DNA of 64,000 nucleotides, taken from NCBI GenBank assembly GCA_024720975.1, contig JANJXX010000003.1:64001-128000 (forward strand), in the 5' to 3' direction. This document shows, in pieces, positions 1 to 53,000 of this stretch. Each line of letters begins with the position of its first letter. Position 1 is the first letter of the stretch. The notes below the pieces were generated by a model. It ran no database searches, was not told the DNA's origin, and saw only the letters and a program-made list of their open reading frames with translations. Source of the stretch: Thermoproteota archaeon (GTDB lineage: Archaea > Asgardarchaeota > Njordarchaeia > Njordarchaeales > Panguiarchaeaceae). A program made the translations under genes and the position numbers.

Positions 1-3000
1 TCTTCAACACCTTCCCAAGGTGATAATAAACCGTATACGTCTTCCTTCTCTGGTCTACCGATTATTGTAAGGTATTCGTCATCGTACTGGCTATCAAGAT
101 AGGCATTTCCAATGTAATCATGGAAGGCATCGGTCCATTCAATATCTATCGTGGCACTGAGATCTTTAGTGCCACCACCTCCAAACCAAATGGAGTACGA
201 TGGCAGACTTGATGGAGCATCCTGTATCTGGGGTGATATGTAGTATTGCGCGGGGTCATGTGCTAGTGGATTAGAATTCTTATCTAGTGCTTTTAATTCT
301 TCAGCCTCACTAGATTTGTATGAACCACTTGTCCAGCTTCCTGTTGATGGCGGATCATCACCAGTATCATTGTCTTCGAAGAATATTGGATCATCATCCC
401 ATACTATCAACATTGAGTAATATACTAGCCATTCAGGACTCATAGGCACCTCTATCTTAAAGTATACTGTAACATACACCCATTGGTTGAAGTCTATGGC
501 TGGGGAAAGCCCCGACATACCTTTGAATTTTATCGTATTTGCTAATGAGGAGGTATCGTATATTCCTGTGAAGTTTAGTTTGCTGAGTTTGACATCGCGT
601 ATGTAGCATCCCCAAATCTTTAGATCAAACGTTACGTTTACTATGCTAAAGTTGTAGCAGTGATATTTTACCATGCTCCACAGCCAATCTTTAAGTGTGG
701 TGTTTGAGAAACCGCGAAATCTATTTACTCTCCAAAGTCTGACTTGTACATCAAAGTAGCTATCTTTACCAGCTTCCATGGTTAGATTGTTTATATACAC
801 CTCACCAAAGAAGTCATCTAATGTCCCAGAGGCTTGTTGGCCAGCTTTGCTACCAAAGTGATATCTTCCATTATAAACCAACAGAGCCTTAAAGTTCTCG
901 AGTCCTACATTAAATCCTAAGCTACCCACGGCCTGGTGATAATTAAGGAGAATCCAGTTATAGTTCCACAGATTTATATTGCTTGGATTATTATTCCACA
1001 CTGGAACTGCATAATTAGCAGCATTTTCGATGCCTCCATATAGGTCATTTGTGTAGTACGTTCCATAACCTATCGGTACAAGAGCAACAGCATCGGCATT
1101 TATGCCATTGACGTAAGTTTTAACCATTGAGTTTAATGCCGTTTGAATGACATCGGGTGTTATGATGAACATGAATTTCGCAGATAGTGCTTCAAGATTG
1201 CTTATATTAACACCGAATATTTCAAGATCTATCTTAGTACTCGCCCATACGTTTATTGACCATCCTTTTAAGGTTGCATCTAGGAACTCTTGTAAGTATC
1301 TGTTCTTAAGAAATACTATCTCTATCGTTACATTCGAAGGGACCCCGGCCCTCAGATCCGCTACTCCAACTATTTTTTGTATTCCAAAAGCCGTGTATGT
1401 GTTAAGAGGCTCCATGTGTAGAATTGTCTCCATTCTAAGTATTTTTATGTTCAGAGAGCTTTGCACTGGTTCAATTAATCTTATGGTAGCAGAAAGCTTA
1501 TCCTCACCAATTACCTTCCAAGATAAGTTCTCGGTGCTGTATCTAATTACATTGTTTAATAAAGCCGATGCATCAACTTCACCCTGCATTAGGGCTTCGT
1601 AGTAATCGCTTACGCAGTATCGAGTGTTGTTATACTTGAAGTTTATTTCAAGTACTAAGTAGTTCGAATCAAAGAGCCTTATTCTTACTGAGCCCCAAAC
1701 GTCCATTGTAACATTCTTTTTCACGAGCAGATCCTGTAAAAATCCTTGAAGTGCAATTCTGTTTGACTTGAATATAGTTACGTTTACACCAAACGTTGTG
1801 TTTTTATCCAAACTTAATTCTAGGTATGAAATGAATACGTTAGCTACTTTGACGCCGCCATATAGTATATCCACACTTAGGTTGTTAACTTCTACAGGTA
1901 TCTTAGACTTGGACACAGTCACATTGATATTTAGCAGCGCTGTTGAATAATCTTCCCCTAGTACTGTTATACTTCCTACAGTCATATTGAACATACTCAA
2001 AACGGTTTCTTGAACACCTGAAGACTCTAGTTGTTCACTTACGTTCCAACCGAATACCTGTCTGAGTGATATGTTTTGGACGGTGATTCCAAAGAGGCTG
2101 ATTCTGCCAACTCTTGCGTCTACATTAATCTCGATGTTGTAGTTGTTTATTAAGTTCATGAGAAATTCTGCCGTTTTTGGTCTGTCCGCGAGCATTATAT
2201 ATGCGACTATTGTGGTATTACCTAAGGCCGCTTCGATCTTAGGAACATTTATTTTGGCCACTACAGTATTGTCTTTGATTAATTTAGCATTTATATCATA
2301 CGCTGCGAACGATATGTTGAATCTATTCATAAAGTCTACTTCCGCACTAAGAACATAATATTTAACTTGATCCTGCTGATCATAGAAGCTACCAACGTAG
2401 TTGAGACTCTTGTACGCGATAAGCGATTTAAAGTCTACTGGTACTATTCCGGCGCTCGCGTTTGTGGCCGACATGTTAAAGGTTAAACCTTTTAAGTCTA
2501 GAGACAAATTCAAGGTTAAATATTGTGTTGAGCTGTCAAATAGTTGGACCACTATAGATCCGTTAACATTAACAACAGCGTTATTACCCGCTAGATAATC
2601 TTCAATAAACTTTCTAAGTGCAGGCGAACCTTTGAAGATTGTAATATCTAAGGATATACTTGTTGGCTGAATGGGTGATAATACCATATTGTTGCCACGC
2701 AGTCTGGCGATCTTACCTAGATCATTGCTGACGTCAAGGTTCATTTCATGCACTTTAATATAAACAGGCGTGCTATTGATGCTAAGACTAACTGTTACGT
2801 TTGCTGTGTATTCATCCTCACCCCAAACTTTTACTTGATCTATACCATATAGTGGAAAGAGGCTAGGCGTTATAGTGTTTGCTCCAGTGTTTATTTGCTG
2901 CGAGAGATTCATTGCTTGACAGAGGTTGTAATCGAAGCTTAGGTCATCTATTTCCGCTCCTAGGAATAGCAAGTCCGTAGAACCTCTTATTGTTACATTT

Positions 3001-6000
3001 ATGACGCCTCCAGAGATTATACTTTCCAGCAAGTCCTTTGCTCCTGGATTATCGTATATAGCTAGGTGCACCGATATATTTGACCAGTTATCTGGAAGAA
3101 GTGTATATGGTCTGTTTATGAAGATCTTAAGCGCTTCATAACCTGAATTAGATATCGTGATTTTAGTATCCCCTATAGTTATAGGCGCCGCTATTGGGAT
3201 CTTCAGGGAGGCATTTACCTCTAGGTCATAATATTGTCTAGCACCAAAGGTTTTTTGAGAGATGCCGAGGAGCTTAAACAGATCTTGCAGAGGTATGAAA
3301 GTGTATGGCGAAACTACTGAGCCATTGGCTGAATTATAGGATTCAAGGCTTTGGTTTAATGAGAGTTCTATCGGAATTTCGTTTATCCTGTATCCAAATA
3401 CCATTAAATCGAGTTTTCCAGAGACGTTGACACAAAGTATTTTCCTTTCAACAATATCTCTAATGAGTTTCTCTAAGGGTAAATTGTTCGGTCTGTATAA
3501 GAGAACTATCGTAGCATTTACTTTCGAAGTTGCTCCGCGGGTCATTTCCGCACCTGGAACTAGAACGTAACCAATTGATCCAAAGTTGTTTTCGAGCGTT
3601 AAGTTTAGGTTATAAATAGATACGCTTATTGGAACTTCTGTGATGCTGATGGATACATTAACCTCGAACTTCTGTCCATCGTAGTTCGTCGAGACAAGCT
3701 GAGCATTGGTAACGTTTATCAATGGCGCGGCAGCGGTTGCTTGTGGGAGCTCTTGCTTTGATAGATCGGCGAAGATTTTACTTGCAAGTGATATCTGTGA
3801 TATATTTAGTCCAAATAAGGATATTGATGCTACACCGCTAATTGTTACATTGATGCATCTCTGCCGTAGCAATTCCTCTAGAAAACTTTGAGTTGCTGGT
3901 GTATCCTTAATTTCTAGATATATTTTCATGGTTACATTTTGACCAGGAGCCACACTATAGGAGCCTGCAGAACATATTTCCGCAACTGTATAATCTCTAT
4001 AAATTACCTTGAAGCTTAGATATTCAATTCCCAGAGAGACATTAATGAAATTGTTGAATACATACTCAATTAGGAGCGTTCTTGGTCCTGTTTGCTCAAA
4101 CCTCTTAAGCGCCAGGATATTCTCTATATTAAGGGGAACTATTGATTCCGATAATGAGTCTGAGGATGACGTGTAACTTACGTTTTTAAGACTTATTTGA
4201 ACGGTAAAGTTCCATTCTAAGAGTTTCAAATATGCAGACACATTTAAGTCAACTATGGCATCCCCCTCGATGAGATCACCAATTATTTCTGCTGTGACAT
4301 CCTTCTTGTAGAATAGTACTTCAATTACGATGTTCATGAAATCCTTACTAAGATCAAGTGAGTCTACAAATACAGCCTCTATTGCTTTCTCTCCTCCCTT
4401 GCTTAAAACTGCTTTTAAGTCCCACACAGTGACAGGTAGCATGTACTCATTCGTTAGGTTTAGCTTTATCAAGATTTTTGCTAAGGTGGCGTTTTCCATT
4501 AATGTATCTATGTATAACTTATTTATTTTGAGTCGCCCAAGTGGCAAAGGACTTGATCCAAGGCTCTGCTGTCCGACGAGTTCTGTGCTTAACCTGTATG
4601 CGAGATTATATGTGATATTAACATTTATCACTTCAATACCATAGAATGTTATGTTCCCGTAACCCTTGATGGATGCATTGAAAATGCTATTTTCTATTAG
4701 ATCCTTAAGAAACTTATAAGTCTCATTCCTGCTAAATACATACATGTCGACTATTAAACTGGATGTTTCTTTCGGTCGCACCAGAGCATCGCTTATGAAC
4801 ACTCTAGCAACGGTAAGTTGATCTCTGATTACTTCTATTGAGAATGGCCCAACAGCGGCATCTACTCCGTACGGGTTCTTGAATGAAATTGATGTATTGA
4901 AATGATATGCTTTTATACCATTGATTATTTCCTCGCCTATGTACTTAAATTTATCTATGCTTACAGCAAGATTTGGAAGGGCACTAGCTTCGATAATCGC
5001 TTGAGTATTAGGAATTGATGTTATGTTGCTTAGCTTGAATGGCAAGGTTACATTCACGCCAAATATTTCGGCTGTGACTTCTCCACTTATTACTAGCGAG
5101 TGAAGTTTACCCTCGATTATTCTCTTAAGAACCTCTGCTGTGTACTCTTTATTTGATTTGTGTATCTTTATGTAAGCTTTTATTTGTTTTCCGTTGACAG
5201 TATTATACAAATCTATTGTAGAGTTTGAGCTCAAAGTTATTGCTGGAAGACTCCAGCCAATAAGCGATATATTCACTTCATACTGAAATACCTTTACGGG
5301 CAAGTGATCAAGCCTAGCCGAAAGAGATATCTCTAGCAACGTCTCACTTTGATTGTCATAAATTATGGAAATATCCTCTAGATCTAAACCTCCTAGTCCA
5401 CCTATATCCTGATATCCACCCACGCCAACACTATCAGTTATATTCACTAGTAGTCTTTGGATAAACGTTATTTGTGGAAATTCTACCCCAAATATTTTGA
5501 TGCCCACTCTTCCATCGATTGAAGCATTTATAAGCCCATTACAAGCCAGATCAACCAAGAAGTTTCTCATAGCCTCCTTTCCTTTGAATATGTATATGCT
5601 TACGCTTAGGAGTGTTACTTTCTTGCTTTCCAGTATGTATCTATCTTTCAACATAATTTTTACTAGTCTCTGACCATCTCTGCTTAAGTATATGCTTGCA
5701 TCCCAAAATTCTACCGTTATTCCCATCGTATTGTTAAATGTTACATTTACATCAAATCTAAAGGCATCCTCACCATCAACCTTTGTCTCTCCTGCATATT
5801 TAAATCCCGCGATACGGAATAGATTACTCAACCTAATTGAAGACAGAACTGACTGTTGAGTTTCCTCGGATGACATATCTATGCGAAAGTCTTTGAATGT
5901 TATCACTCCAAAGTCCCAATCAAATAACGACAAAGCTAATGTGGCATCTACGTATAATTCACTAACGTTACCATAAACTAAGCTTCTAATCATATCTACA

Positions 6001-8540
6001 AATTCACTCGATTCGTTACGAAGCACTATTTTTAATATCACATCCTTGTTACCTGGTCCTCTTATTGGTTCCTCGAGTATAACTTGAACTGGCGGATTTA
6101 TGCAGTCCTTCCTTAGGCTCACATCAGCAATTAGAAGACTTATAACCATCGGTATAGGTATATCAACAACTGTCTTTATGCGTATTTCGATTCGATTTGG
6201 ATACTCGGTCACATCAAGGAGCTCAACACTTCCACCGCCATAAGTCGATGTTATATCTTTCGTTCCTAAGAGCGTTAATGAGTCCATTAGCGAAACTACA
6301 AAATTCGTCTGAAAGTCTTCTAGGTTTATCTCAACTCCACCTAAGCATGCGGTAATATTTCCACGTATGATCACATTAACTGCTTTTCCATGAAGTGTAT
6401 CGTTTAAGAATTGACGTGCAGATTCCGTCTTGAATATATGTACATTAACAGCAATCAATCTTGATTCGAACTGTGGGATTCGAGTGGATTGCGGTATGAC
6501 AATTTCTAGTGCAGGTTCAATACTATTCGGAGGATATACATAGAGGTCTCCAGGTCCTATGTCTAATTCTGCACCAAATGGGTTAGTTATTGTCGCGTTA
6601 ACATATATTGCATAGCCCTCTAGATTATTAATGACAACTTTACCAGCATATTTAATGCCACTAATCTTGTAGAACTTAGATGCTTCTCCTGCTACTGGGA
6701 CACTACCACTGGAGAGGGAAATCATGCCCCCTCCTGCGCGTATAGGGACGCTATAGAACATTCTGCTGAGAAACTTCATGTCAATTGAACCAATGAACAT
6801 TACATCACTAGTCCACGTGCCTTTGATGAAAGATTTTATAAATTCACCTATGTCTGGAGAGTCTTTTCTGATTCTTATCTCTATTGTTGGCTGGCAAGTT
6901 ACTAGTCCTGTTTCTGACTCTTGATTAAGGTCTATATTTCTGATTTTCACACTTCCTATAGTACTAGAGTTGTATACTATGTTACCTCTAATTTCATATA
7001 TTGCCAAGGGCATTCTTTTATAGGTCAGTGTAACAAGCGAGTTGACTATGAGGTATTTATCTGTTGCGGTTATATTATACTTCATATCAGTTATATTGAA
7101 CCCAGCCATAAGGCTCGATAAGTCGAACCCCTGCCTCATGAATTCGCCCATATCTACTGCAGGAGCACTCACTTGACTAGTAGAGAATGTAGATAGGTCT
7201 ATCTTTTCTATCCATACGCCAGCAAAGTATACATCGGCTGTACCTGCCAAAGAGGCACTAAATTCATTGTTGTAGAGTAACCGGTTTAAGAATGCGTGTA
7301 AGTTCTCATTGTCTATAAAATCTGCACTTATGCGGAATGACCTGTTCTCATTAGGACTTACCAAGATTTTCTCATCTATTCTTACATTAAGAATTGATTC
7401 ATCATTTTCCCCTAGTAGATCAATGTATAGTGGTCCAAAACCTATCGTCCAGTTTAATTTGTTCGTTAGTTCGATCGCTACATCAAATGAGTGCCTTACT
7501 TCACTTCCGATGATTTGTTCCCCTAAGTAGCTTATATCTAGATTGCTGATTCGAAGATTCTTACTCAGCAACTTAAATATCGCATCAAATATTGATGATG
7601 AAGCCCCTGGGGATTGCACTGGTGATAGAAAACCAGAGAATTGAGATATGTCAAATTTTACCTCTGAATTTTCGACCTCTATTCCAAATATCTTCAAGGA
7701 GAGACTTCCTCTTAGCTTGCCACTGACTTTACCCTCTTTTATTGCAAGATTCAGGAAGTTTTCCAGGGCGCTTCCCTTTATAAAACGCAGATGTATTGAT
7801 GTACTGAAGTTACCACTTGCTGAGTCTAGGATGTATTCCGGTATGGTTATATCAAGCACACGGCCGAGACTAGTTAGCAAGCTTAAACTGACATCCCTAA
7901 TTTCTACGGTACCCACTTGGAGTAACTCGGTTGGAACGAAGCCACTTACGAATACCTTTGCCTCGCAGAAGCTTTTTGTCTCGTTAGTGAGTTCGATCTC
8001 TTTGATCTCAAAACTTGGGAAGAAGCTCGAAATCGAGATCGATGCACCGCCTCCTGCCGGGCTTAGGTCAATTAGATCTTTTAACGAAATGTCTAATGGT
8101 ATTCTAATAGCCTCTATCACCCCAAATAGTGATATCGGATATTCAACCCTTATTTTAGCATCTATTTGTTGGGAGGCTAGGTATGTCCTTATTAGTCTCT
8201 TCGTTGCCTCAGTTTTATATAATTTTAATGATACCGTTGATATACCCAACTGACCTGGATCTAGTGTTATTGGACTAAGGTATCCAATACCTATTAACCC
8301 ATCCGTCTGCGAATCTAATACTTTGAAGTTTATTGCAGGAACCCTCGTAGGTAACCAGTGATTGTTTCTAATCAACATCTTTATGCTTAATATGCTAGAA
8401 TCTTTCGTCTCACCAACGAATCTTATGGAGAGGGGCTTGAAGTCCATACCAAGGAGGGGCACTACTGAAATTACATTTACGGCAATATTACCTATAATTA
8501 GCAATATTACAATCGTCAATACTTTTCTCTTAAAGGTCAT
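1..8540 (-). CDS. Giant membrane-anchored protein (>2846 aa, 3' end outside window) with ~18 tandem LEA_2/WHy-like domains
   Basis: ATG at 8540 with GGTGA SD at 8546-8550. N-terminus MTFKRKVLTIVILLIIGNIAVNVISVVPLL (basic + hydrophobic). The same frame reads open in the many segments translated by hand down to position 3 (...GRPEKEDVYGLLSPWEGVE). Recurrent N-P/N-x loop and FG hairpin motifs about every 430 nt. Not in the ORF track because there is no stop in the window. Confidence 0.9.
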   Translation of the reverse strand, partial: MTFKRKVLTIVILLIIGNIAVNVISVVPLLGMDFKPLSIRFVGETKDSSILSIKMLIRNNHWLPTRVPAINFKVLDSQTDGLIGIGYLSPITLDPGQLGISTVSLKLYKTEATKRLIRTYLASQQIDAKIRVEYPISLFGVIEAIRIPLDISLKDLIDLSPAGGGASISISSFFPSFEIKEIELTNETKSFCEAKVFVSGFVPTELLQVGTVEIRDVSLSLLTSLGRVLDITIPEYILDSASGNFSTSIHLRFIKGSALENFLNLAIKEGKVSGKLRGSLSLKIFGIEVENSEVKFDISQFSGFLSPVQSPGASSSIFDAIFKLLSKNLRISNLDISYLGEQIIGSEVRHSFDVAIELTNKLNWTIGFGPLYIDLLGENDESILNVRIDEKILVSPNENRSFRISADFIDNENLHAFLNRLLYNNEFSASLAGTADVYFAGVWIEKIDLSTFSTSQVSAPAVDMGEFMRQGFDLSSLMAGFNITDMKYNITATDKYLIVNSLVTLTYKRMPLAIYEIRGNIVYNSSTIGSVKIRNIDLNQESETGLVTCQPTIEIRIRKDSPDIGEFIKSFIKGTWTSDVMFIGSIDMKFLSRMFYSVPIRAGGGMISLSSGSVPVAGEASKFYKISGIKYAGKVVINNLEGYAIYVNATITNPFGAELDIGPGDLYVYPPNSIEPALEIVIPQSTRIPQFESRLIAVNVHIFKTESARQFLNDTLHGKAVNVIIRGNITACLGGVEINLEDFQTNFVVSLMDSLTLLGTKDITSTYGGGSVELLDVTEYPNRIEIRIKTVVDIPIPMVISLLIADVSLRKDCINPPVQVILEEPIRGPGNKDVILKIVLRNESSEFVDMIRSLVYGNVSELYVDATLALSLFDWDFGVITFKDFRIDMSSEETQQSVLSSIRLSNLFRIAGFKYAGETKVDGEDAFRFDVNVTFNNTMGITVEFWDASIYLSRDGQRLVKIMLKDRYILESKKVTLLSVSIYIFKGKEAMRNFLVDLACNGLINASIDGRVGIKIFGVEFPQITFIQRLLVNITDSVGVGGYQDIGGLGGLDLEDISIIYDNQSETLLEISLSARLDHLPVKVFQYEVNISLIGWSLPAITLSSNSTIDLYNTVNGKQIKAYIKIHKSNKEYTAEVLKRIIEGKLHSLVISGEVTAEIFGVNVTLPFKLSNITSIPNTQAIIEASALPNLAVSIDKFKYIGEEIINGIKAYHFNTSISFKNPYGVDAAVGPFSIEVIRDQLTVARVFISDALVRPKETSSLIVDMYVFSRNETYKFLKDLIENSIFNASIKGYGNITFYGIEVINVNITYNLAYRLSTELVGQQSLGSSPLPLGRLKINKLYIDTLMENATLAKILIKLNLTNEYMLPVTVWDLKAVLSKGGEKAIEAVFVDSLDLSKDFMNIVIEVLFYKKDVTAEIIGDLIEGDAIVDLNVSAYLKLLEWNFTVQISLKNVSYTSSSDSLSESIVPLNIENILALKRFEQTGPRTLLIEYVFNNFINVSLGIEYLSFKVIYRDYTVAEICSAGSYSVAPGQNVTMKIYLEIKDTPATQSFLEELLRQRCINVTISGVASISLFGLNISQISLASKIFADLSKQELPQATAAAPLINVTNAQLVSTNYDGQKFEVNVSISITEVPISVSIYNLNLTLENNFGSIGYVLVPGAEMTRGATSKVNATIVLLYRPNNLPLEKLIRDIVERKILCVNVSGKLDLMVFGYRINEIPIELSLNQSLESYNSANGSVVSPYTFIPLQDLFKLLGISQKTFGARQYYDLEVNASLKIPIAAPITIGDTKITISNSGYEALKIFINRPYTLLPDNWSNISVHLAIYDNPGAKDLLESIISGGVINVTIRGSTDLLFLGAEIDDLSFDYNLCQAMNLSQQINTGANTITPSLFPLYGIDQVKVWGEDEYTANVTVSLSINSTPVYIKVHEMNLDVSNDLGKIARLRGNNMVLSPIQPTSISLDITIFKGSPALRKFIEDYLAGNNAVVNVNGSIVVQLFDSSTQYLTLNLSLDLKGLTFNMSATNASAGIVPVDFKSLIAYKSLNYVGSFYDQQDQVKYYVLSAEVDFMNRFNISFAAYDINAKLIKDNTVVAKINVPKIEAALGNTTIVAYIMLADRPKTAEFLMNLINNYNIEINVDARVGRISLFGITVQNISLRQVFGWNVSEQLESSGVQETVLSMFNMTVGSITVLGEDYSTALLNINVTVSKSKIPVEVNNLSVDILYGGVKVANVFISYLELSLDKNTTFGVNVTIFKSNRIALQGFLQDLLVKKNVTMDVWGSVRIRLFDSNYLVLEINFKYNNTRYCVSDYYEALMQGEVDASALLNNVIRYSTENLSWKVIGEDKLSATIRLIEPVQSSLNIKILRMETILHMEPLNTYTAFGIQKIVGVADLRAGVPSNVTIEIVFLKNRYLQEFLDATLKGWSINVWASTKIDLEIFGVNISNLEALSAKFMFIITPDVIQTALNSMVKTYVNGINADAVALVPIGYGTYYTNDLYGGIENAANYAVPVWNNNPSNINLWNYNWILLNYHQAVGSLGFNVGLENFKALLVYNGRYHFGSKAGQQASGTLDDFFGEVYINNLTMEAGKDSYFDVQVRLWRVNRFRGFSNTTLKDWLWSMVKYHCYNFSIVNVTFDLKIWGCYIRDVKLSKLNFTGIYDTSSLANTIKFKGMSGLSPAIDFNQWVYVTVYFKIEVPMSPEWLVYYSMLIVWDDDPIFFEDNDTGDDPPSTGSWTSGSYKSSEAEELKALDKNSNPLAHDPAQYYISPQIQDAPSSLPSYSIWFGGGGTKDLSATIDIEWTDAFHDYIGNAYLDSQYDDEYLTIIGRPEKEDVYGLLSPWEGVE

Positions 8541-8550
8541 ATACTTCACC

Positions 8551-11500
8551 TTAAAGATCTAATTCTTCCGATTCGAATATCTCCAAGAACTCTTTCTCAA
8601 TCTCTTCATAGCTTATTTCTCCTGTCACTGGCGCGGCTTTTTCATGGACACTAAACCTACTTCTTGCAATGAACTTTCTGAGAGCTACAAAAATCGCCCC
8701 AACACAACTAAACGTACCAAGAACAATAAGACCATACATTAAACCGGCCTCACGAGCGGGTTTCACTTCAATCAATTTACTAAGCGATTTATCTTTGTAG
8801 TGCCCATTTCCAAGCACTTCGACTTTGATTAAATGCTCCCCATGCGAATCAGGAACCCATATTATCTCTAGAGGTCCATTATAGATCGTTCTCACGAGTA
8901 GCCTATCACCGACAATTATCGACACAATAACACCAGCAACAGGCTCATTATCATTGTCCGTAATATAAACTTTTATCCTAGCTGCATTCCCAATTTCCAA
9001 TACGCTAGGCACATATACCTGGGCGTTCAAATCTTCTTCAAGAATAGTCAATTGCGTTTCAAATGAGCTGCTAGCATGAATACTCGTTGCTGAGCTTTGG
9101 ATAATGAGTACATACTCGCCTGGTTTAAAGCTCATCCTTACTATAATTTTGGCCGTTCCATTTTCATCTGTTATTGTCGTTACCACTGGGTATTTCACAT
9201 TACTACCATTTGAGAGATAAATTGATATAGGTATTCCCGCTAGAGTCTTATTATCTTGATCGATAAGGATAACATAAATTTCTATGAAGTCGCCGTATTC
9301 TACCATTTGGGGTGATAGTGTAGCGATTATCTCGGTAGAAATCGCTTCTATAACCAACGTGATCTTAGGACTATATACTAGCTCATAGAAGTTGCTCATA
9401 AGCTGTATCTCTAGGTAGTATGTTCCTGGTAGAAAATCTACATAGAATGGATAAGCAAGTCGTATTTGTGGTTTTAGAGTACCATTGTAAATGGTGTACA
9501 AGCCGCTGATAACGACGAATACTTGACCTGAATCATCTATAACTTCTTCTCCGTCGTTATCCGTAAGGAGTATTAATAGCTCCGAACTGTGTTGATAAGT
9601 TACAGTCCATGTGTAACTATTTGAGTATACCATCGCCCTTTCTTTGCATACATACACGTAGTACGTATAGCAAGCTTCACCAACATAGAGGTCACTCCAA
9701 ACTTTGACTATTATTGCTATTTGTTGGAGCGGAATGAACATATTCGTATTGACACTAAGAACAGCTGTGCCATCTTTTACCTCCAGGATTTTACACAGAA
9801 CAGTATTTCCTGAAACAATTGTTATATTAGCTATCCCTTGCACTATTGAGCAATAATCGTCATCAAAGGCATGTATTTTTATTAATAAGGAATCTCCCCA
9901 TTCAATGATACTTGCATTAGTACTTATATCGACGCCTTTGAGAACATCCTTCTCGACAATTAAATTGCGCGCCAGTGAAGCTTCATAAAACTTGTCACTT
10001 TCATAGATCATTATAATGTATACGTACTCGCCAGGAGTTAACCATTTCGGATAGCTACTACTGAGAATACGTACTACTAATCGACCGGATAACGAATAAT
10101 TTCCTCCTAGCAAATAGATGTCATCATTTATTACTACATACACCTCGGCGTATGCGTTCACTGGCACACCGAGTTCGGTTGATACATTAGCGCAGATTGT
10201 ACCACCATCAGAGAATACAATTGTAGCGTCGCTTGATTGAATTACCAAGTGAGCTTTGCTTACAGAAACCGCTACAAAGATCTCTGATGGATAATAACTC
10301 CTCACACTGTCCCCATCAAATGCTACACGAATTTCATATTCGCCCTCGGGCAGATTCACAGCCCAGTTTATTATAGCCTTACCAGATCGGTCTGTATACC
10401 CTTCAGCTAGGATTTCTCCTCCGTACGATAGATACACATATGCGTTGGATACAGGATCTCCGAACATATCCACTAGGATTATCTGTGCCACGACTGTCTC
10501 GCTCCAAACCGGCGAATTTGTGCTTAGTGAAATTGTTATGCTCGTTAGTAACCAAACATGTACCCAAACAATGTTAGACTTTGATTTAAATACAGTGTCA
10601 TTGAGACAAAACTCGAGTCTGAGGTAACCCGCTGGCGCGTGCAATGATGCCAGATCCACAACCACTTGACTATTCTCTCCATTATAATATATTTCAATCG
10701 TATGCATTAAGCCACTTGAGTTATACACATTGATGTATACTTTTTGTCCTTCAAGGGGGATAATGCCTCCATCGTTTCGATATGCACTAAATACTATCGT
10801 GATAGTCTCGTTAGCTAGGGCATTTATTTCCGATGCATTGAATGAGAAAATTACCTCTTCCTCCCTAATGGAAAGGCGCAAACAATATACAGAGAATGAG
10901 GAGTCACTTTCCCTATCATTATCCAGATCATAAATTGTTATCTCAATGTCGCAATCCCCAGCACGCAGTGGAGTGTCTATGATTAGAAGCAGCTCGAATA
11001 GAGTTCCATTTGTGTACAATACTTGAGCTTGTTTCACTAGCACTATACTATAAATCTTTATTACTATTGTTTCATTAACTCCGCTTGGATCACTCACAGA
11101 TATTCTAATACTTAGGCCCTCGTCAGCCTCAATAATACCATCTCCAGTGCCACTACTAAGATACTCTGATACACTTACATTGTGTATAACCGGTCCGTCG
11201 ATGTCATCATCTAGAATTTCCCCGTATGTTATGAATGAGCGTGCTACGGCAGCATCTCCCTGCCAATCATTATCTTTATCGTATGCTATTACTTCAAGAG
11301 AGAATGCAGACCCGACATAGTTTATCCAAATATTCCTCGGGATTATAATATATGCCGTATTTCCATTCCAGTAAATTGAATTGTTGTTGTATGTTATTGC
11401 TACATTGTACTTTTGGAAGTACACTATAAATGTCACAGAGCCTACTCCACTTTCTTGATCAGTTATAACGGCCCATATAACTAAGTCCTCGTTACTTGAG

Positions 11501-13611
11501 TCATATATCGTTATATAATTTCCAGGGAAGACTATTTCAGGCGGGTTTGGATCATCATCAACAAGCTCGACATAGAATCTTTGACTTATAACAGCATTGC
11601 CAGCTTTGTCGATACACTTTGCCTCCCAATACAGTTTCTTCCCTACATGTGGTTTCCATTCACTTGCGGATATCACTATCCGAAACTCTCCACTTATATA
11701 ACTTGCTACAATCCAATCACTCCAGTTTGTGCCACCATAACTATATCGTATTAGCACGCGCTCAACACCACTTATCTGGTCGCTGCACACAACACTAAGA
11801 ACTATATTATTAGTCGCATTGTCTAGGAACACTGTTCCAATTTGAGGTGAATAGCTAAGAATTCTTGGGGCTATTGTGTCTATCTGAATCGGTCCTTTTC
11901 TAGCGCTCTCATTCTCATTACCGGCGCGATCTACTGCGACGACACTTATGCTCCAAACACCCGACGGCAATCCAATGGTTGCATAGAGTTGCTCGTATGG
12001 ACCATACCAGTTAAAAAGAGAACCACTGCTATAGTTATAGACTCGTACCATATAGCATCTTATGCCACTCATACTATCCGTACTTTGACTCCATGCTATG
12101 TATACATTACTAGTATTGTACCATTTCGTGGAACTAGGTTGGGGATTTATGTTTATTATCTCAGGTTTCGTTGGTGGTACAAAATCTACGTTTATTCCAT
12201 GCTCCCAACAAAGCTCCCAAACTTTAGTTCTACTTAGATCAGTTCTCCAAGAGAGCAACCCATTTATAAACTCGAATATTGTTGTGGGTTTATAAGTTCT
12301 TACAACATACCAAATATCCGAAATACTGATACTCAGCGAATCTCCAATGCCATCGCCATCTTGATCATCATCACTTGAATCATATAGATCCCATAGAACA
12401 GCGGCGACACTACTTGCGACATCAAAATCATTGCGTGAGTTATCAGAATCGTAAAGCGTTTCTAAATCGCGAAGTTCAAAGTTTTCACTGCTTATGTAAT
12501 AGCGCTTTATAACTTCTGAGAGAAATATCGACCAACCAACAACCCAAGCTGTTTTTGGGTCTGTGTGAACATTAAAGTTATAGTTGCGCTCAAAGCTAGG
12601 TAATACGCTGCGTTGTGCCAGCAAAAATTGTGCAAAGGCCATGAAGAACTCCGTGTAGTTTGTAGCAGCTGCTGCCCATAGTCTTTTATCGGTAGTGTTA
12701 TAGAAATAAACGCTAGTTTGGGCTGGGTATGTTATATTTAATCCGGGTAAGCTGCTTTCACCTAAGACGCTGATTGCAAAATCTCTAGCTAGCATTGCAA
12801 ATAACATGATCTCTCCAGCTGGTCCTCCAAGAACATATACAATGGATTGAGGGGGTGTTACATAGCTAACGGTTGTGGCATCATTCTTATAAAGTTGTTG
12901 CCCGGATATTGGATCGGTCCAATAAGAACCTTGGATATATAGACTGTACGCACCTCCACCTAAATTGGAGTAGTCGTTATACATTCGGTATAGGTAAACT
13001 CTGTTGCTCGGATCGTATATAGCAACAACATTGGATATATCTGTATAAAATTGAAGAACAGGGTCTCTATTGCTAAGCTCCCCCCAATCAAACGCATCGT
13101 AGACTACACAGAAAGCTCCTTGACTGTCGGTTCTCGTAGATATTATAAATTGCCCACTGGGAGTATAACCGTCGCTATAGGGCTCTCCAGAGTCCTGATC
13201 CCAAACGTCCACTAAGATGCCCTGTATAGTTTTATACGCACCAGAGGATGTCCGTGAATATGGATCTCTGACTTTGACATAACCATAAAGGCGAACATCG
13301 CCGCTAGGAATACTAGGTGTTCCTGAGGTTATGTAGTAGTATAGATAGGCTAATATGACTGGATCCGTGTTTACCCTAGCTTTAAGTATATCTGCCTCGT
13401 TGGCATGCTTGAGCTTTGTTTTGGAGTGCGATACCACAATTACATTTTGTGCATTCTTGGTACCTCCTCTGTGAGCATCGGTATGCAAATCATCTGCTGC
13501 TTTGGAATCCACCCGCAGGTTTTTTATGTTTGCACTAATGATTGGATCTACTATCACTGCTAAAAATATTATTGAGACGAGCATAAACCTAATTATTTGA
13601 ATTTTGTCCAA
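8551..13611 (-). CDS. Large type-I membrane surface protein: signal peptide, degenerate zincin-like domain, FN3/Ig-like repeats, C-terminal TM
   Basis: 1686-aa ORF. Hydrophobic N-terminus; SVAAVLWDLYD and AWVVGW motifs; DxxxP linkers; C-terminal GLMYGLIVLGTFSCVGAIFVAL followed by RK; many NxS/T sequons. Confidence 0.85.
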   Translation of the reverse strand: MDKIQIIRFMLVSIIFLAVIVDPIISANIKNLRVDSKAADDLHTDAHRGGTKNAQNVIVVSHSKTKLKHANEADILKARVNTDPVILAYLYYYITSGTPSIPSGDVRLYGYVKVRDPYSRTSSGAYKTIQGILVDVWDQDSGEPYSDGYTPSGQFIISTRTDSQGAFCVVYDAFDWGELSNRDPVLQFYTDISNVVAIYDPSNRVYLYRMYNDYSNLGGGAYSLYIQGSYWTDPISGQQLYKNDATTVSYVTPPQSIVYVLGGPAGEIMLFAMLARDFAISVLGESSLPGLNITYPAQTSVYFYNTTDKRLWAAAATNYTEFFMAFAQFLLAQRSVLPSFERNYNFNVHTDPKTAWVVGWSIFLSEVIKRYYISSENFELRDLETLYDSDNSRNDFDVASSVAAVLWDLYDSSDDDQDGDGIGDSLSISISDIWYVVRTYKPTTIFEFINGLLSWRTDLSRTKVWELCWEHGINVDFVPPTKPEIININPQPSSTKWYNTSNVYIAWSQSTDSMSGIRCYMVRVYNYSSGSLFNWYGPYEQLYATIGLPSGVWSISVVAVDRAGNENESARKGPIQIDTIAPRILSYSPQIGTVFLDNATNNIVLSVVCSDQISGVERVLIRYSYGGTNWSDWIVASYISGEFRIVISASEWKPHVGKKLYWEAKCIDKAGNAVISQRFYVELVDDDPNPPEIVFPGNYITIYDSSNEDLVIWAVITDQESGVGSVTFIVYFQKYNVAITYNNNSIYWNGNTAYIIIPRNIWINYVGSAFSLEVIAYDKDNDWQGDAAVARSFITYGEILDDDIDGPVIHNVSVSEYLSSGTGDGIIEADEGLSIRISVSDPSGVNETIVIKIYSIVLVKQAQVLYTNGTLFELLLIIDTPLRAGDCDIEITIYDLDNDRESDSSFSVYCLRLSIREEEVIFSFNASEINALANETITIVFSAYRNDGGIIPLEGQKVYINVYNSSGLMHTIEIYYNGENSQVVVDLASLHAPAGYLRLEFCLNDTVFKSKSNIVWVHVWLLTSITISLSTNSPVWSETVVAQIILVDMFGDPVSNAYVYLSYGGEILAEGYTDRSGKAIINWAVNLPEGEYEIRVAFDGDSVRSYYPSEIFVAVSVSKAHLVIQSSDATIVFSDGGTICANVSTELGVPVNAYAEVYVVINDDIYLLGGNYSLSGRLVVRILSSSYPKWLTPGEYVYIIMIYESDKFYEASLARNLIVEKDVLKGVDISTNASIIEWGDSLLIKIHAFDDDYCSIVQGIANITIVSGNTVLCKILEVKDGTAVLSVNTNMFIPLQQIAIIVKVWSDLYVGEACYTYYVYVCKERAMVYSNSYTWTVTYQHSSELLILLTDNDGEEVIDDSGQVFVVISGLYTIYNGTLKPQIRLAYPFYVDFLPGTYYLEIQLMSNFYELVYSPKITLVIEAISTEIIATLSPQMVEYGDFIEIYVILIDQDNKTLAGIPISIYLSNGSNVKYPVVTTITDENGTAKIIVRMSFKPGEYVLIIQSSATSIHASSSFETQLTILEEDLNAQVYVPSVLEIGNAARIKVYITDNDNEPVAGVIVSIIVGDRLLVRTIYNGPLEIIWVPDSHGEHLIKVEVLGNGHYKDKSLSKLIEVKPAREAGLMYGLIVLGTFSCVGAIFVALRKFIARSRFSVHEKAAPVTGEISYEEIEKEFLEIFESEELDL

Positions 13612-13759
13612 GTTTCATCGCATGACCACACTCCCCATAAAAGTTTCTGAAAACTTTATCCTAAAGATTTAAAAGCCAGAGGGGTTAAACTAAGAAATTT
13701 CAATAAAACTGTTAAATTTCCGTATAAATCTCGGCTAGTATCTAACATATAATTATAGT

Positions 13760-13782
13760 AATTTGTGTTTATAAATATTTAT
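13760..13782 (-). promoter_or_regulatory. Candidate TATA box for the two-giant-protein operon
   Basis: Minus strand reads ATAAATATTTATAAAC in the AT-rich gap upstream of 13611. Confidence 0.3.
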
Positions 13783-13819
13783 CTCAGCGTTTCGAAGGAA
13801 GTATTACGCCAGTAGGATT

Positions 13820-15616
13820 CTATACTAGAATGGCTAATAAACTCAGCAGTACTGATAGGGCGAATGATAGTAGCATGTCTCTGATAAACACTTTAACATA
13901 GACGATAGATAGTCCCTTAATTGCTGCCGCATTGTTTCTACCTAAAACACGTAGATTAATAACTTTTGCCTTGTTTGACACTTCTGCCTCAGTCAAATTT
14001 TCAATGGCCTTCCTAACGGTTTGTATTGTGCATTCCTTAAGGATTTCGCCCTTTTTCTCACCTAATATTGTGTACAGCTTATTTGCGTCCAACGCGCAGA
14101 CTGTGTGCGTGTCTGTAGATAGTAGTTCTACCGACTCAGCTCCAAACTCCTCTCTTATTTTCTCTTTCATGTCTAAGTAGAACTTGGGATTTATATTGTT
14201 GGAGTCATAGGTAATGAGTATATGCAATTTTTGTCCTATTTTCATCGCAATTGCTACAATGCCGAGTCCTCCCAGACCATCTTTAGGCTTGACTTGTTCG
14301 CATTTACACTGATCCACCCCGATCATGAACTTCTTTGGTTCACAGACTTTAGTTATAGCATTTCTAATGAGTTTTCCAAGCATGTGATACTCTTTACTAT
14401 CAATGTCAAGCACTAAACCTTCCACTGGTTCGGATAGAGAATTATGGGCATCTACCAGAAATACATTCTTTCCTGACATATGACCAAGTTCCATTGCAAA
14501 ATAACCAAGTGACGTTTCTAAATCATCCGAATTCTGAGGAGCGTTAGAGGCTAGCAGATATGTTTGATTTCCGAGTGATAATTTAGTTACATGCAAGGAT
14601 CCATTATTAAATATTTCAGGTTCACATATTTCATCGTACCAAAAATTCTCATCAAAGATGCACTTTATTTCCCGCTCGATTACATCCAAGAGCTTGAATT
14701 GCTCCGCCAGGGACGGTAAATTGGCATCATGTGAGGATGCACCCTTGAGAAACAAAGTGGGAATTTTTAGCCTATTCTTCATCTCTCTGAAGAGTATCTC
14801 CGGAAAATCCGATGAACCGGAGTTAAGCAAGGGTCCTGGGTGTATTTGAGCCCCAACGATTGCGAATAGTGGCTCTTTTCTATCTTTGGATCTGAAAGCT
14901 GTTATTGCCACTGGTATTTCGCGATCGATGCTCATTCTCTCTAGTATTTTCTCGAACTCATCACGTTTTCGATCAAGTTTAAGCATTAGGAATGCTCTTA
15001 CGAGCTTCAGTGTGCCAATTTTATTTGTAGTCGGCCATATTTTTTCATTGGAGTAAATTATTGCAAGCGCGGTAAGTATTACCAGAGCGATTAAGAGTGT
15101 CACCTTTGCGAAAGGTGTAATAAAATTCAAAGTTGGGTTATACTGTGCTGTTAAACAATTGGTGCTTCGGATTAATGATAAACTTATGATGGAGACATTC
15201 GAAAAGACAAAGAAGGCCGACTTCCAAATGCCCCAATTTACCAATCCTAGCACAATATATAGCTCCAGGACTGATAGTATGCAGAGAAAGATTGGACAAA
15301 ACCACGCACGCAACAGAGTTAAAATTAATATGAGGTTAAGGAAACCTAGTAGTATATTAGAAATGGCAAGCGCTCTTCTACGATTTAGAGCTCTTACCTC
15401 TTGTGGTAGCTTTAATAATAGTAATGGCATGAAAACAGCTGCAACTGTTAGGATATAGACATCTATTGATGTGACATCTACCCTGTAAAGATTCCATAGA
15501 ATTACAAAGTATATAGAGAACTGAGCCATTAGTGTGAGAAGAGGAGATTTAAGACTAGGGAAAAGAAACATGAGGCGATACAAACGATTGATCTCTTTCA
15601 TCTCATTTTCGCTCAA
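13820..15616 (-). CDS. DUF2070 family membrane protein
   Basis: N-terminal TM bundle followed by HPGP, SSHD, DAHN, DSNN and TDTH motifs typical of this archaeal family. Confidence 0.8.
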   Translation of the reverse strand: MSENEMKEINRLYRLMFLFPSLKSPLLTLMAQFSIYFVILWNLYRVDVTSIDVYILTVAAVFMPLLLLKLPQEVRALNRRRALAISNILLGFLNLILILTLLRAWFCPIFLCILSVLELYIVLGLVNWGIWKSAFFVFSNVSIISLSLIRSTNCLTAQYNPTLNFITPFAKVTLLIALVILTALAIIYSNEKIWPTTNKIGTLKLVRAFLMLKLDRKRDEFEKILERMSIDREIPVAITAFRSKDRKEPLFAIVGAQIHPGPLLNSGSSDFPEILFREMKNRLKIPTLFLKGASSHDANLPSLAEQFKLLDVIEREIKCIFDENFWYDEICEPEIFNNGSLHVTKLSLGNQTYLLASNAPQNSDDLETSLGYFAMELGHMSGKNVFLVDAHNSLSEPVEGLVLDIDSKEYHMLGKLIRNAITKVCEPKKFMIGVDQCKCEQVKPKDGLGGLGIVAIAMKIGQKLHILITYDSNNINPKFYLDMKEKIREEFGAESVELLSTDTHTVCALDANKLYTILGEKKGEILKECTIQTVRKAIENLTEAEVSNKAKVINLRVLGRNNAAAIKGLSIVYVKVFIRDMLLSFALSVLLSLLAILV

Positions 15617-15696
15617 AGGAAGGCACCAACTGCTGAACTTGATAGTGTTATGATAGATTCATTGGTGAAATTTTACCTCCACCCGGTTAATGGCTG

Positions 15697-16407
15697 CTAA
15701 TAGTATTCATAATCTGAATAATCTTCAGACTCGTTGTATCCGTGCTCCACTATTGTGTATACTATAGCAGTTTTATACCCCAGCATACGACGCATAAATT
15801 TACTACGAAAGACTATTGCAAAAAGTATCCCGCCTATGATGCCACCAATGTGCGCATAGTGAGCGATAGTTGGAAATATGCCCACAATAGCAAACAATGT
15901 GAAGAGTGCCACTAGCATTGTGATCATTGCCCATGCGGGAAGAACAAGGAATGCGAAAAAGACAAACATGGCTATTCTTCTTTGAGGATAGAGAACAGCA
16001 TAAGCCCCTAAAATTCCAAAGACTGCTCCTGATGCTCCAAGCGCTGGGATGTCTTTGTAGGGACATAAGAGGATGTGCATAAACGCACCAAGAAGCCCAG
16101 AGAGAAAGTACAGAAGTGCAAATGCCTTATGACCAAAATTGCGTTCACACTCTGGCCCAAACATATATAGAGCGTACATGTTAAAGAATATGTGAAGAAA
16201 ATCAGCATGGAGAAACATGTGAGTTATTATAGTCCAAAGCATGGCACCGCGTAGAACTGCATTCGGACGCAGAGCGAAGTAATTGATCATAAGCGCTGGA
16301 TTAATGAGTTCTAAAACGAAGATAACTAGGTTTGATATTATTATAGATTTAACCACAATAGGATTGAAACGATAGGGTTCTAGTCCGTGTTCGTACCAGA
16401 AAACCAT
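15697..16407 (-). CDS. Rhomboid intramembrane serine protease
   Basis: HMFLHADFLHIFFNM, GASG catalytic Ser, AHIGG catalytic His. Confidence 0.93.
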   Translation of the reverse strand: MVFWYEHGLEPYRFNPIVVKSIIISNLVIFVLELINPALMINYFALRPNAVLRGAMLWTIITHMFLHADFLHIFFNMYALYMFGPECERNFGHKAFALLYFLSGLLGAFMHILLCPYKDIPALGASGAVFGILGAYAVLYPQRRIAMFVFFAFLVLPAWAMITMLVALFTLFAIVGIFPTIAHYAHIGGIIGGILFAIVFRSKFMRRMLGYKTAIVYTIVEHGYNESEDYSDYEYY

Positions 16408-50044: not shown

Positions 50045-53000
50045 TCAGAGTTTTTGCATTTTGCGCTTCTTAATAAATAACAGTCCCACAAATACTACAG
50101 TAACTAAAATCGTTATAATCAGCGATATGAGGAATGGGCCAAGGATTATTATAGTTACTTTCATTGGCTTCCACAGATAAATGCTTCTTGATGCACTAAA
50201 GCCCCCAACACTGGCCCTTATTTCATATTCACCTAAGTCTAGTCTCTCATATTCTCTTACAATTCCTTGATAAAGGACGATTTTGCACTTTCCTTTTGGC
50301 GCATCTAGCTCATAAGTCCTTGAGTCTCTTCCAATTATCGTGACTTTAGCGAATTCGGGCTCCCTTAGATCATAGAGAACTTCGATAGTCAAGGTATACA
50401 GTATATGTATCTCGGACAGGTCTTCAGCAAATATTGGATACTCCAACAAGGTATCTATTAGCCAAATTCTCGAAAATCCATCAGCTCCCAGTGTAAAGAT
50501 TTGTGAGTTGATCACAGTAACGTTGGAGAACATCATTGCTAATATCGTTAGATCGATGAGTTCAGACGCATAAGCATCTATTCTATAGCCCATTTGTTCA
50601 TTGTAAAATTTAGTAACTCCCAGTATATTCTTAAGCTCTACGTGACCATAAACAAATACATCAACAATTCCAACTTGTGATTTACTGATGTATAGTCTGG
50701 TTCCATAGCCTGGATTTAATAGGCGCACAAAGGATGAAGAAATTTCCAGGTCGCTTGGGCCTCCTACAATGAGATATAATGATCTTGAATTATTCATCAG
50801 GATACTTGAAGACGCATTTATGAGAATTATTGACGCGCTTAAATTTTCAAGACTTACTAAAGCTCCATGAACCGTAATGTTGAGCATAGTTATCTCTACT
50901 TGACTAACACTTATGTTCCACGGCGCTCTATCAGCTATGTCAGTTGTTGTTGACTTGGGTAAAGAACCTTCTCCTAGATTTCTTAGAGTTAATCCAAGGT
51001 TAACGATGCTGAAGTTTAAACCAATCTTTGATTCATTTATAACAATGTCACCACCATATCTCATAGAGACGGAACCCACAGTACTAGACTTGATAATTAC
51101 TGTTGAGGTATACGATGAAACATCCACTTTATGTACCTTGGAGTCGCGTAATTCTAATCTCGAGAACTCCCCAACTACAAAGCTCCACCTTGATATTTTT
51201 GTATCGATAAATAATCCCCTTGAGAATAGCGGGATGTCTTCTGGGGCTGATGCTTTGTATAGATATGTTGGTTGAACCCCCTGAGCATAGGCTTCAGTGA
51301 AGATTATATATATCGATAACCCTATCTCTGACCCAACTATTGAGAACTCCGTGAGATAAGGCATGAAATCTCCAATATTTGAGTTTAATAACACGACATC
51401 ACAAAGAACCAATCGAGCTTTTTCAACGTAACTCGATGATATGTATGCCTCCGATCCTTCTGCTAGTATTTCATTTATTCTAGAATTTTCTACGAGAATT
51501 TTCGATTCCACTAGGTTCATAGTACGTATTTTGGAATTTCGTATGCTTATGTTTGAACGATATGCATCGATGCTTACCTCGAGAATCGTTGTGTTTATTA
51601 TCCTCAGGTTTTTGGAGATATCCAAGGAAATCGGCTTGTATGCCCCAACACCATCGATATTTACAACATCCTCGATCTGGGATAATCCAAGATAGAGGCG
51701 CGTAGCTGAGTTCCTAATTATCGCTGAGACGTTCGCTCCTCCTTCAAGATGCACCTCTGAGTATCCATAAACTCTACTATTTTCTAAGATCAACATTCCA
51801 TTGTAGGCAATTCCTACCGATATCACATCAGACTCGATAATCTCTAATTCAACGCGTCCATAAATTCCGAGTCCGATTGCATACCAACCAGTTATGGATG
51901 TATTAACCAACGTGAGCTTTATTGGTGTTGATGCGTTAACAAATTCGCTTAGGGTCGCATTCTCATAGTACCCAGGCCTTAGCTTTAGTCTATAACTACC
52001 CTCAAGAAATCCTAGTATTATGTTTGCTGTCGTCTTTGTCATAAAAACGTCTGATTCAATAATATATGTGTATATAGACGTAGTTTCATTGAAGGCAACG
52101 CTAGAGCCCCAGATTATTGTTATTGACGATAATTTTGAATTGTATATCACTAGTTTTGATCCGTAAATTCCCATTAAGTCGCTAACTATAACGTTTTTAA
52201 CTCTCGCTGTGGCATTGGATATGTAAAGTTGCGATAAAAGCGAATTCTCCACGGTGAATTCTCCTAGAGATAGATCTAAGATCCAAGACCCATGAGAGTT
52301 TACAACATTTATTCGCCAACTCTCATCAACATTTAGAACATCTGAATTCCAACTGGATATGTACCCAGGTTTAAGGTTGCGAATTACGGCATTTTCTTCT
52401 GATATTGCTATGTATATTGTGACCACGGATTTATCAATAAAAATGTCTGTACCACTTATTGCAGCTACAACACCTCCATAAGATGACAAGATACGTGCTT
52501 TAGCAGCATTGCCAAGGCCAGCTACGATATCAAATACCACGCTATTCAGGTTAATCTCGGCATTTCCAAGGACATAAACAGTGTTCAGAATTGATCTATA
52601 AGCATTTGTCTTAGATCCCCCCGATGCAAATATTGTATCAATTATTGACTCTACTATATCCACACTGGAATCATGTGTTACACGTACTAGTGACGCCTCA
52701 GAGGATTCAATCGATAATCGGCTGTTGTAGAAGAGATATATCCAGCCTAGGATTGAGCTTTTTACAACTATATTGCTATCGTAAGAAAGTATATCCCAGC
52801 CAAGTACATATACATTAGACAGATTTATCGACCAACCACCGCTTTTAACAAGAATCATATAATGTATATCGCCTGGCTTTAGATTCTCGATCTCCACATT
52901 TTCAAGCTTATAAACGAGACCGAACCAGATCATGCTGTCTCTTGCCAGTATGTTAGCCGAATCATAGACTCTAAGCCAGTATAGAATCTTCGACTTTTCC

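Follow-up and report, generated by a model that had tools for sequence, protein, structure and literature searches.

What is the very long protein encoded at the start of the 64,000-nt stretch analysed here (the window: positions 64,001 to 128,000 of contig JANJXX010000003.1, assembly GCA_024720975.1), and what might it do for an archaeon of the Njordarchaeia? An earlier note, made from the letters alone, had proposed a hidden minus-strand open reading frame (ORF) of more than 2846 aa with one N-terminal transmembrane segment and about 18 tandem LEA_2/WHy-like domains. The protein, here called the LEA-2 giant, is predicted to be a membrane-anchored array of 18 LEA-2 domains that ends in a head of conserved sequence, and with moderate confidence we read it as a fixed-length contact stalk. 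Among prokaryotic LEA-2 arrays it is the longest found in this study, and it comes with a head of its own and a partner gene in the operon.

The minus-strand frame runs without a stop codon over positions 3–8549 and is open at the window start. Followed into the adjacent DNA, it ends 349 nt past that start (stop codon at contig positions 63652–63654), with no in-frame stop before residue 2962, so the long frame of the earlier note exists. Translation from the ATG at 8540 yields a protein of 2962 aa (P0003), and a GTG at 8549 would lengthen it to 2965 aa; its ORF is the longest of the assembly (2968 codons vs. 1988 for the runner-up), which comprises 1.36 Mb in 29 contigs and is 81% complete. 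Full-length members of its 90% cluster, each of 2962 aa, are carried by five independent contigs of metagenome-assembled genomes (MAGs); the cluster members that NCBI names are listed as hypothetical proteins from archaea of the Korarchaeota, Crenarchaeota or Thermoproteota. The single transmembrane segment also stood: one strong hydrophobic helix is found at residues ~7–29 (Kyte-Doolittle 2.55 over 19 residues), preceded by the six-residue stub MTFKRK. Hydropathy finds no second segment of like strength across the protein, C-terminus included, and the N-terminal 31 residues, read from the sequence, have no Cys and so no lipobox Cys.

To describe the repeats, a hidden Markov model (self-HMM) was seeded on one stretch of the protein and iterated on the protein itself. 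It recovers 17 units of 127–140 aa between residues 32 and 2471, each with an E value of 1e-24 to 1e-41; as a control, 50 shuffles peak at 5.2 bits. An 18th unit, at residues ~2520–2680, is degenerate and has insertions, matches the HMM weakly and aligns with the other units. The approximate count of 18 proposed earlier thus divides into 17 clear units and a degenerate one, and the ~430-nt recurrence corresponds to a period of ~143 aa, the units themselves being about 135 aa. The sequence motifs quoted in support of it lie where they were placed, for example LTNKLNWT (residue ~360, near position 7460) and ITNPFGA (residue ~654, near 6580). The features are listed below; units 1–17 were all delimited by the self-HMM, and those also covered by an AlphaFold 2 (AF2) model or a Pfam match are so marked.

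1–8540, minus strand: in-window part of the LEA-2 giant gene (residues 1–2846 of 2962), an open frame
8454–8522, minus strand: N-terminal membrane helix, residues ~7–29, a predicted type II signal anchor (hydropathy, no lipobox Cys)
8040–8447, minus strand: LEA-2 unit 1, residues 32–167, nearest the membrane and without an N-x-S/T glycosylation signal (sequon)
7599–8012, minus strand: LEA-2 unit 2, residues 177–314
7152–7535, minus strand: LEA-2 unit 3, residues 336–463
6681–7100, minus strand: LEA-2 unit 4, residues 481–620
6252–6656, minus strand: LEA-2 unit 5, residues 629–763
5847–6245, minus strand: LEA-2 unit 6, residues 766–898
5403–5804, minus strand: LEA-2 unit 7, residues 913–1046, the top-scoring unit (126.9 bits)
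4977–5387, minus strand: LEA-2 unit 8, residues 1052–1188
4560–4949, minus strand: LEA-2 unit 9, residues 1198–1327
4137–4532, minus strand: LEA-2 unit 10, residues 1337–1468
3729–4133, minus strand: LEA-2 unit 11, residues 1470–1604
3315–3719, minus strand: LEA-2 unit 12, residues 1608–1742
2874–3278, minus strand: LEA-2 unit 13, residues 1755–1889 (AF2 model; the solved structure 3BUT aligns to model residues 1–123)
2454–2858, minus strand: LEA-2 unit 14, residues 1895–2029 (AF2 model)
2010–2405, minus strand: LEA-2 unit 15, residues 2046–2177 (Pfam DUF3712, AF2 model)
1593–1991, minus strand: LEA-2 unit 16, residues 2184–2316, bearing the Pfam LEA_2 match (Pfam, AF2 model)
1128–1520, minus strand: LEA-2 unit 17, residues 2341–2471
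501–983, minus strand: degenerate LEA-2 unit 18, residues ~2520–2680 (weak HMM match, alignment, and order of strands and helix in a low-confidence model)
1–500, minus strand: first part of the conserved C-terminal head (residues 2681–2962); the remainder lies beyond the window

Pairwise identity among the units is 10–22%, and Tandem Repeats Finder detects no DNA-level tandem repeat of ~430 nt in the gene, so the units are old and diverged and do not represent an assembly artefact. Mean local scores are 68 and 53 within the two classes of units (odd- and even-numbered), and 48 between the classes; odd units are therefore closer to each other than to even units, which indicates an A-B double unit.

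The fold of the units was approached in several ways. In Pfam, the whole protein matches DUF3712 (PF12505) with 66.3 bits (cut-off 24.1) over three stretches, and LEA_2 (PF03168) with 29.2 bits (cut-off 25.4). The best DUF3712 stretch straddles units 15 and 16, covering the second half of the former and the first half of the latter. It is out of register with the units exactly as described for DUF3712 by Levine (bioRxiv 10.1101/2021.03.12.435176), according to whom the family extends from strand 4 of one LEA-2 domain as far as strand 3 of its successor. When units are scanned singly at E 0.1, LEA_2 is matched by one of the 18 and DUF3712 by three, and that only four of them reach this threshold again indicates their divergence. 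A profile built from 68 units of four orthologues retrieves from the PDB 3BUT, an LEA-2 structure from an archaeon, first, over nearly its full length (E 3e-4), and plant LEA14 (1XO8) second (E 0.014), the remaining matches having E values of 1 or more. In an AF2 model of units 13–16 (mean predicted local distance difference test score, pLDDT, 76.7; predicted template modelling score, pTM, 0.58), every unit has the order b1–b5, helix, b6–b7, with a short strand 4' in unit 13, and this order is the published LEA-2 topology as defined by Levine (bioRxiv 10.1101/2021.03.12.435176). An exhaustive fold search of the model against 48,161 solved chains places 3BUT at the top (Z 10.0, 117 of 125 residues aligned), followed by 1XO8 (Z 6.9) and the luminal domain of TMEM106B (8B7D; Z 6.8). 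Generic immunoglobulin (Ig)-like sandwiches reach Z 5.8 at most, which is far under 3BUT and just under 1XO8 and TMEM106B.

Shape searches of the ESM Atlas gave fungal Tag1/DUF3712 clusters as the closest multi-domain shapes (~340 residues aligned, template modelling (TM) score 0.41), and an archaeal CARDB cluster with a TM score of only 0.28. A Foldseek search of the four-domain model against the PDB returned solely multi-Ig chains with TM scores of 0.1–0.2, and was uninformative. The LEA-2 giant has no Pfam match to Ig-like, CARDB or Big families, and bridge-type lipid transfer families (VPS13/AsmA-like) appear neither in the Pfam results nor among the listed fold matches, the units being modelled as separate sandwiches. 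On these sequence and model data, the units are LEA-2 domains; plain Ig or CARDB units were considered and are disfavoured by the LEA-2 topology and by LEA-2 structures being the best solved matches. Pfam, PDB profile, AF2 topology and fold search thus all agree with the LEA_2/WHy assignment of the earlier note, which had named stops splitting the frame, or ordinary Ig/CARDB units, as findings that would speak against it; the frame has no such stops and the units do not model as that kind. Its background statements also accord with Levine (bioRxiv 10.1101/2021.03.12.435176), who places TMEM106B, Tag1 and DUF3712 proteins in the LEA-2 superfamily and describes archaeal members as typically short (~311 aa, two domains).

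The dense N-x-S/T sequons remarked on earlier are a true excess: the LEA-2 giant has 75, vs. 29 expected from its composition. This amounts to 2.5 per 100 aa (proteome median 0.29) and ranks 14th among the 505 ORFs of at least 300 aa, i.e., in the top 3%, and all four orthologues carry 75–90 sequons each. A gene for the oligosaccharyltransferase AglB/STT3 is present in the genome, and the protein is probably heavily N-glycosylated. Given the high sequon density, the sequon-free unit 1 and the presence of AglB/STT3, a location outside the cell is the natural reading. The KRK of the stub and the sequon load together suggest an N-in/C-out orientation, in which MTFKRK would be cytoplasmic and ~2930 residues would lie outside.

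Beyond the array lies the C-terminal head, a region of ~280 aa that is acidic and aromatic and not repeat-like. Residues 2460–2962 match no Pfam family at E 0.01, Tag1_C (PF22786) included, and no NCBIfam family. When shorter proteins with this head were sought by word index, only orthologue fragments came up.

Among 5.8 billion proteins, three further full-length clusters were found at 62, 61 and 40% identity, with lengths of 2966–2983 aa. Each orthologue has 17 profile-detectable units in matching positions, even at 40% identity. The 40% orthologue is from genome G013, which belongs to the same genus (denoted g1), and the urocanases of the two genomes are 86% identical, so the giant has diverged rapidly while its length and unit count were held. 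Identity to this most distant orthologue is unevenly distributed: 40–42% in units 1–2, 27–41% in units 3–15, and 51–56% in units 16–18 and the head, the best conserved end. A 151-aa ORF on the opposite strand (window 1147–1602, plus strand), inside unit 17, has a counterpart with 46% identity at the corresponding site of G013; most likely it is a shadow ORF produced by conservation of the coding strand.

A profile search of 1.84 billion representatives retrieved 275 proteins at E ≤0.001. These include Asgard proteins of ~950 aa (DUF3712 domain-containing proteins in NCBI), ~1900-aa arrays on archaeal-looking contigs, and fungal giants. A special closeness to the fungal DUF3712 proteins, which would have suggested a tie between Asgard archaea and eukaryotes, was considered and rejected: best single-domain scores place none of them in the top 45, their high profile ranks being due to the summing of many units. 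Across a sample of 201 genomes from the phylum, only g1 and a second genus, g2, have arrays of at least 17 units, and the others have 1–4 units. In genome G012, the unit is matched 34 times and the head is present twice over contigs C78, C123, C286, C209 and C230, and this genome probably carries two array genes. Elsewhere, an archaeal-looking contig with genes for NOG1, an Arf/Roc-like GTPase and OapB/OapC (L023:8001–17924) carries a 1890-aa DUF3712 array that adjoins, convergently, the gene for an ABC transporter of the MacB/FtsX type, which in bacteria extracts cargo linked to lipid.

The gene directly upstream of the LEA-2 giant encodes a second very large protein, predicted to lie at the cell surface. 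The features of this region are as follows.

8551–13611, minus strand: partner gene, 1686 aa (Pfam, hydropathy, homologues)
8541–8553, minus strand: gene junction, consisting of the partner TAA, the 10-nt spacer GGTGAAGTAT and the ATG of the LEA-2 giant (sequence)
13612–13819, minus strand: AT-rich intergenic stretch with TTTATAAA, upstream of the two-gene unit (read from the sequence)

The spacer contains GGTGA, and the arrangement of the junction indicates that the LEA-2 giant is translationally coupled to the partner gene. In the partner protein, a signal-like helix at the N-terminus is followed by a head of ~450 aa and by Ig-like domains (Big_1, CarboxypepD_reg), and the C-terminus is formed by a membrane helix and an acidic tail; its topology (type I, C-terminal anchor) mirrors that of the LEA-2 giant. 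Its head matches no Pfam family and has no HExxH motif, carries an invariant, calcium-site-like DDQDGDGIGD motif, and in an Atlas feature search gave weak leads (0.86–0.87) to clusters where mycolysin-type domains are present in a minority of the proteins. The partner family is as rare as that of the LEA-2 giant (5 homologues found). In G013, a 1747-aa homologue (32% identity) lies directly upstream of the giant and a second paralogue downstream, and in G012 the start of a paralogue follows the head. The recurrence of the adjacency in G013 makes this a conserved two-gene unit. The AT-rich stretch ahead of it is likely to be the promoter region; a scan for bacterial-type promoters and terminators, which does not apply to archaea, found no excess over shuffles.

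The lipid genes of the host genus bear on what such a protein could be for. The class was sampled with 14 species genomes in four genera: g1, the genus of the present genome (5 genomes, 75–83% complete), g2 (1 genome, G001), g3 (1) and g4 (7). The numbers of genomes in which each gene or region was found are given below.

LEA-2 array: g1 5/5, g2 1/1, g3 0/1, g4 0/7
C-terminal head: g1 5/5, g2 1/1 (36% identity), g3 0/1, g4 0/7
HMG-CoA reductase: g1 0/5, g2 1/1, g3 1/1, g4 6/7
GGGP synthase: g1 0/5, g2 1/1, g3 1/1, g4 6/7
Polyprenyl synthase: g1 0/5, g2 1/1, g3 1/1, g4 6/7
CarS: g1 5/5, g2 1/1, g3 1/1, g4 6/7

Polyprenyl synthase was detected in all 14 control genomes. At the completeness of the g1 genomes, the absence of three independent genes from all five makes an assembly gap unlikely, and since g1 lacks the lipid-core genes and retains CarS, its lipid cores must be imported. 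By the same token, the lack of polyprenyl synthase in a genus that has AglB/STT3 and a sequon-rich surface proteome would mean that the dolichol-type glycan carrier also has to be brought in. G001 has 28 units, a divergent head and the lipid genes. The g1 pattern agrees with the published account of Panguiarchaeum, a genome-reduced member of the Njordarchaeia (Asgard) that lacks the mevalonate pathway, keeps CarS, PgsA and PssA, and is thought to obtain lipids from a partner (PMC12411855). The DNA of the present stretch occurs in hot-spring metagenomes of at least five studies, and there are no RNA runs among the sequencing runs listed as containing it. Public records label genomes within g1 variously as Korarchaeota, Crenarchaeota, Thermoproteota, Nitrososphaerota and Njordarchaeota, and an orthologue-like fragment as Altiarchaeales; with labels in such conflict, the taxonomic names of this lineage are unreliable.

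An anchor, a probably glycosylated chain, a unit number that stays constant despite sequence drift, a conserved tip and a second rod encoded alongside together point to a contact stalk, and it is from these that we infer both the rod shape and the contact function. In the arrangement we propose, the six-residue stub would sit in the cytoplasm and one helix would anchor a type II protein, with ~2930 residues outside folded as 18 LEA-2 beta-sandwich modules of alternating A and B type, followed by the head. The stalk would hold the head far from its own membrane, and if the modules pack end to end its length may reach several tens of nanometres. It would be produced together with the oppositely anchored, Ig-like giant of the same operon, and its job would be contact with another surface, most plausibly that of a putative partner cell, in an archaeon dependent on others. 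Several results weigh against this account. The pTM of 0.58 for units 13–16 leaves the packing between domains uncertain, and an AF2 model of the C-terminal 463 residues (7 sequences) has a pLDDT of 45, too low for a fold search. The head lacks recognisable relatives, a language-model search of the Atlas having given no usable match. The identity of g1 with Panguiarchaeum is something we infer from record labels, habitat and gene content.

The earlier note had offered an envelope spacer, an adhesin and a lipid conduit as possible roles, and the present results narrow these alternatives but do not settle them. A lipid-scavenging conduit would add a mechanism to the contact stalk and replace nothing in it: isoprenoid lipid would be bound in the grooves of the modules and handed on down the array, or it would be extracted by the head, so as to feed a cell without its own lipid cores from the membrane of a partner. 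Such a cell is what the gene pattern describes (HMG-CoA reductase, polyprenyl synthase and GGGP synthase missing from all five g1 genomes, CarS kept), and all five carry the array, the longest gene in a small genome. We know of no report of experimental proof of lipid transfer by any LEA-2 domain. Lipid transfer is predicted for the LEA-2 superfamily, and the 3BUT crystal has a hydrophobic groove of 27 Å occupied by a ligand that was left unmodelled and is probably a lipid; however, this groove is closed at one end, which fits a binding pocket better than a through-channel, and transfer remains a prediction in the sole paper found that mentions DUF3712 (Levine, bioRxiv 10.1101/2021.03.12.435176). 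After the LEA-2 structures, unit 16 (over a 3-unit span for PDE6D) is closest in fold to PDE6D and UNC119B, lipid-binding sandwiches that take up prenyl and acyl groups (Z 5.8), a weak point in favour of the conduit. Against it, the middle units are the least conserved part of the giant. Moreover, G001 has the lipid genes alongside its 28 units, which makes the array older than the gene loss, and that loss is one evolutionary event, which reduces the co-occurrence to n=1. We therefore hold the conduit to be possible but rather unlikely. More specific, and in our view slightly less probable, is a machine that acquires lipid outside the cell, in an Asgard archaeon with a reduced genome and probably a symbiotic life. 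The head would bind the partner, and the 18 lipid-binding modules would return isoprenoid lipid cores, perhaps along with polyprenyl carriers, to a cell now without GGGP synthase, polyprenyl synthase and the mevalonate pathway.

Alternatively, the protein might serve as a scaffold or spacer of the cell's own wall, for example a stalk with an S-layer-like canopy, with no role in contact or lipid handling. Pairs of stalk and lattice proteins are known from archaeal envelopes, such as SlaB/SlaA and tetrabrachion, and the fixed length, heavy sequon load, membrane anchor and second anchored giant would suit such a pair. However, the giant occurs in only two of the four genera of the class and in no other family sampled in the phylum, and is thus not a basic envelope part of the lineage, while 40% identity within a genus is faster evolution than would be expected of a lattice-forming protein; a scaffold is in our judgement distinctly improbable. 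A stress-protective LEA protein of the plant kind has the family name alone in its favour and does not accord with a membrane anchor, 2962 aa and a high sequon load. These same features, together with an open frame conserved in several independent MAGs and the absence of DNA repeats, speak against a spurious ORF or assembly artefact, and we give neither of these last two explanations any but the slightest credence.

Long LEA-2 arrays are already known in fungi, where yeast Tag1 has 3 domains, UM15053 of Ustilago maydis has 15 without gaps, and some proteins exceed 4000 aa (bioRxiv 10.1101/2021.03.12.435176). The LEA-2 giant resembles these DUF3712/Tag1 proteins in its type II anchor followed by gapless tandem LEA-2 domains and in the out-of-register DUF3712 match, but differs in being archaeal, in having 18 units in A-B order and an operon with a second giant, and in the absence of Tag1_C from its head, a domain that most members of the nearest fungal clusters carry. 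With 3BUT (Af_0446 of Archaeoglobus fulgidus) and a 311-aa protein of Thermococcus litoralis it shares a membrane-tethered tandem of LEA-2 domains, in the giant presumably also outside the cell, although these archaeal two-domain proteins are ~311 aa long and predicted to be lipid-anchored after signal cleavage, whereas the giant, with 18 domains, is held by a plain helix and carries a head in addition. The Asgard DUF3712 arrays (953 aa in Hodarchaeales, 964 aa in Asgardarchaeia) and the ~1900-aa proteins P0029 and P0031 contain the same tandem domain, with 6–12 profile matches each, and are one third to two thirds as long. Giant Ig-like adhesins and stalks also offer a parallel, being tandem beta-sandwiches strung into long rods that carry a functional domain at the far end and diverge fast (the rod being presumed in the present case), but the units of the LEA-2 giant match no Ig, CARDB or Big family in Pfam.

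New here are the distribution of lipid genes in the class, the gradient of conservation along the protein, the rate comparison and the conserved partner gene. How lipid-auxotrophic archaeal symbionts take up lipids is, to our knowledge, an open question for which no uptake protein has been named, and the LEA-2 giant is a concrete candidate, being present in every g1 genome and belonging to a beta-sandwich family predicted to carry lipid. If it is a lipid machine, it would be the first named candidate lipid-uptake protein of an archaeal symbiont, and would provide the first functional context for long LEA-2 arrays, those of fungi included. If it is a contact stalk only, it would with its partner define a surface apparatus of a proposed obligate Asgard symbiont, and would provide the 15-domain LEA-2 arrays of fungi, themselves unexplained, with a counterpart in archaea.

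No functional link is apparent between the giant and its other neighbours. Immediately upstream of the two-gene unit and on the same strand (window 13820–16407, minus strand) are genes for a 598-aa membrane protein of the DUF2070 family and a 236-aa rhomboid protease, the latter of which could in principle clip a single-pass anchor. Downstream of the LEA-2 giant lie genes for ferredoxin and aldehyde:ferredoxin oxidoreductase. Also in the window (50048–56011, minus strand) is the ORF that ranks second in length in the assembly; it specifies a 1988-aa protein, presumably a surface protein, with a gingipain-type Peptidase_C25 domain at residues 226–593 (E 1e-56).

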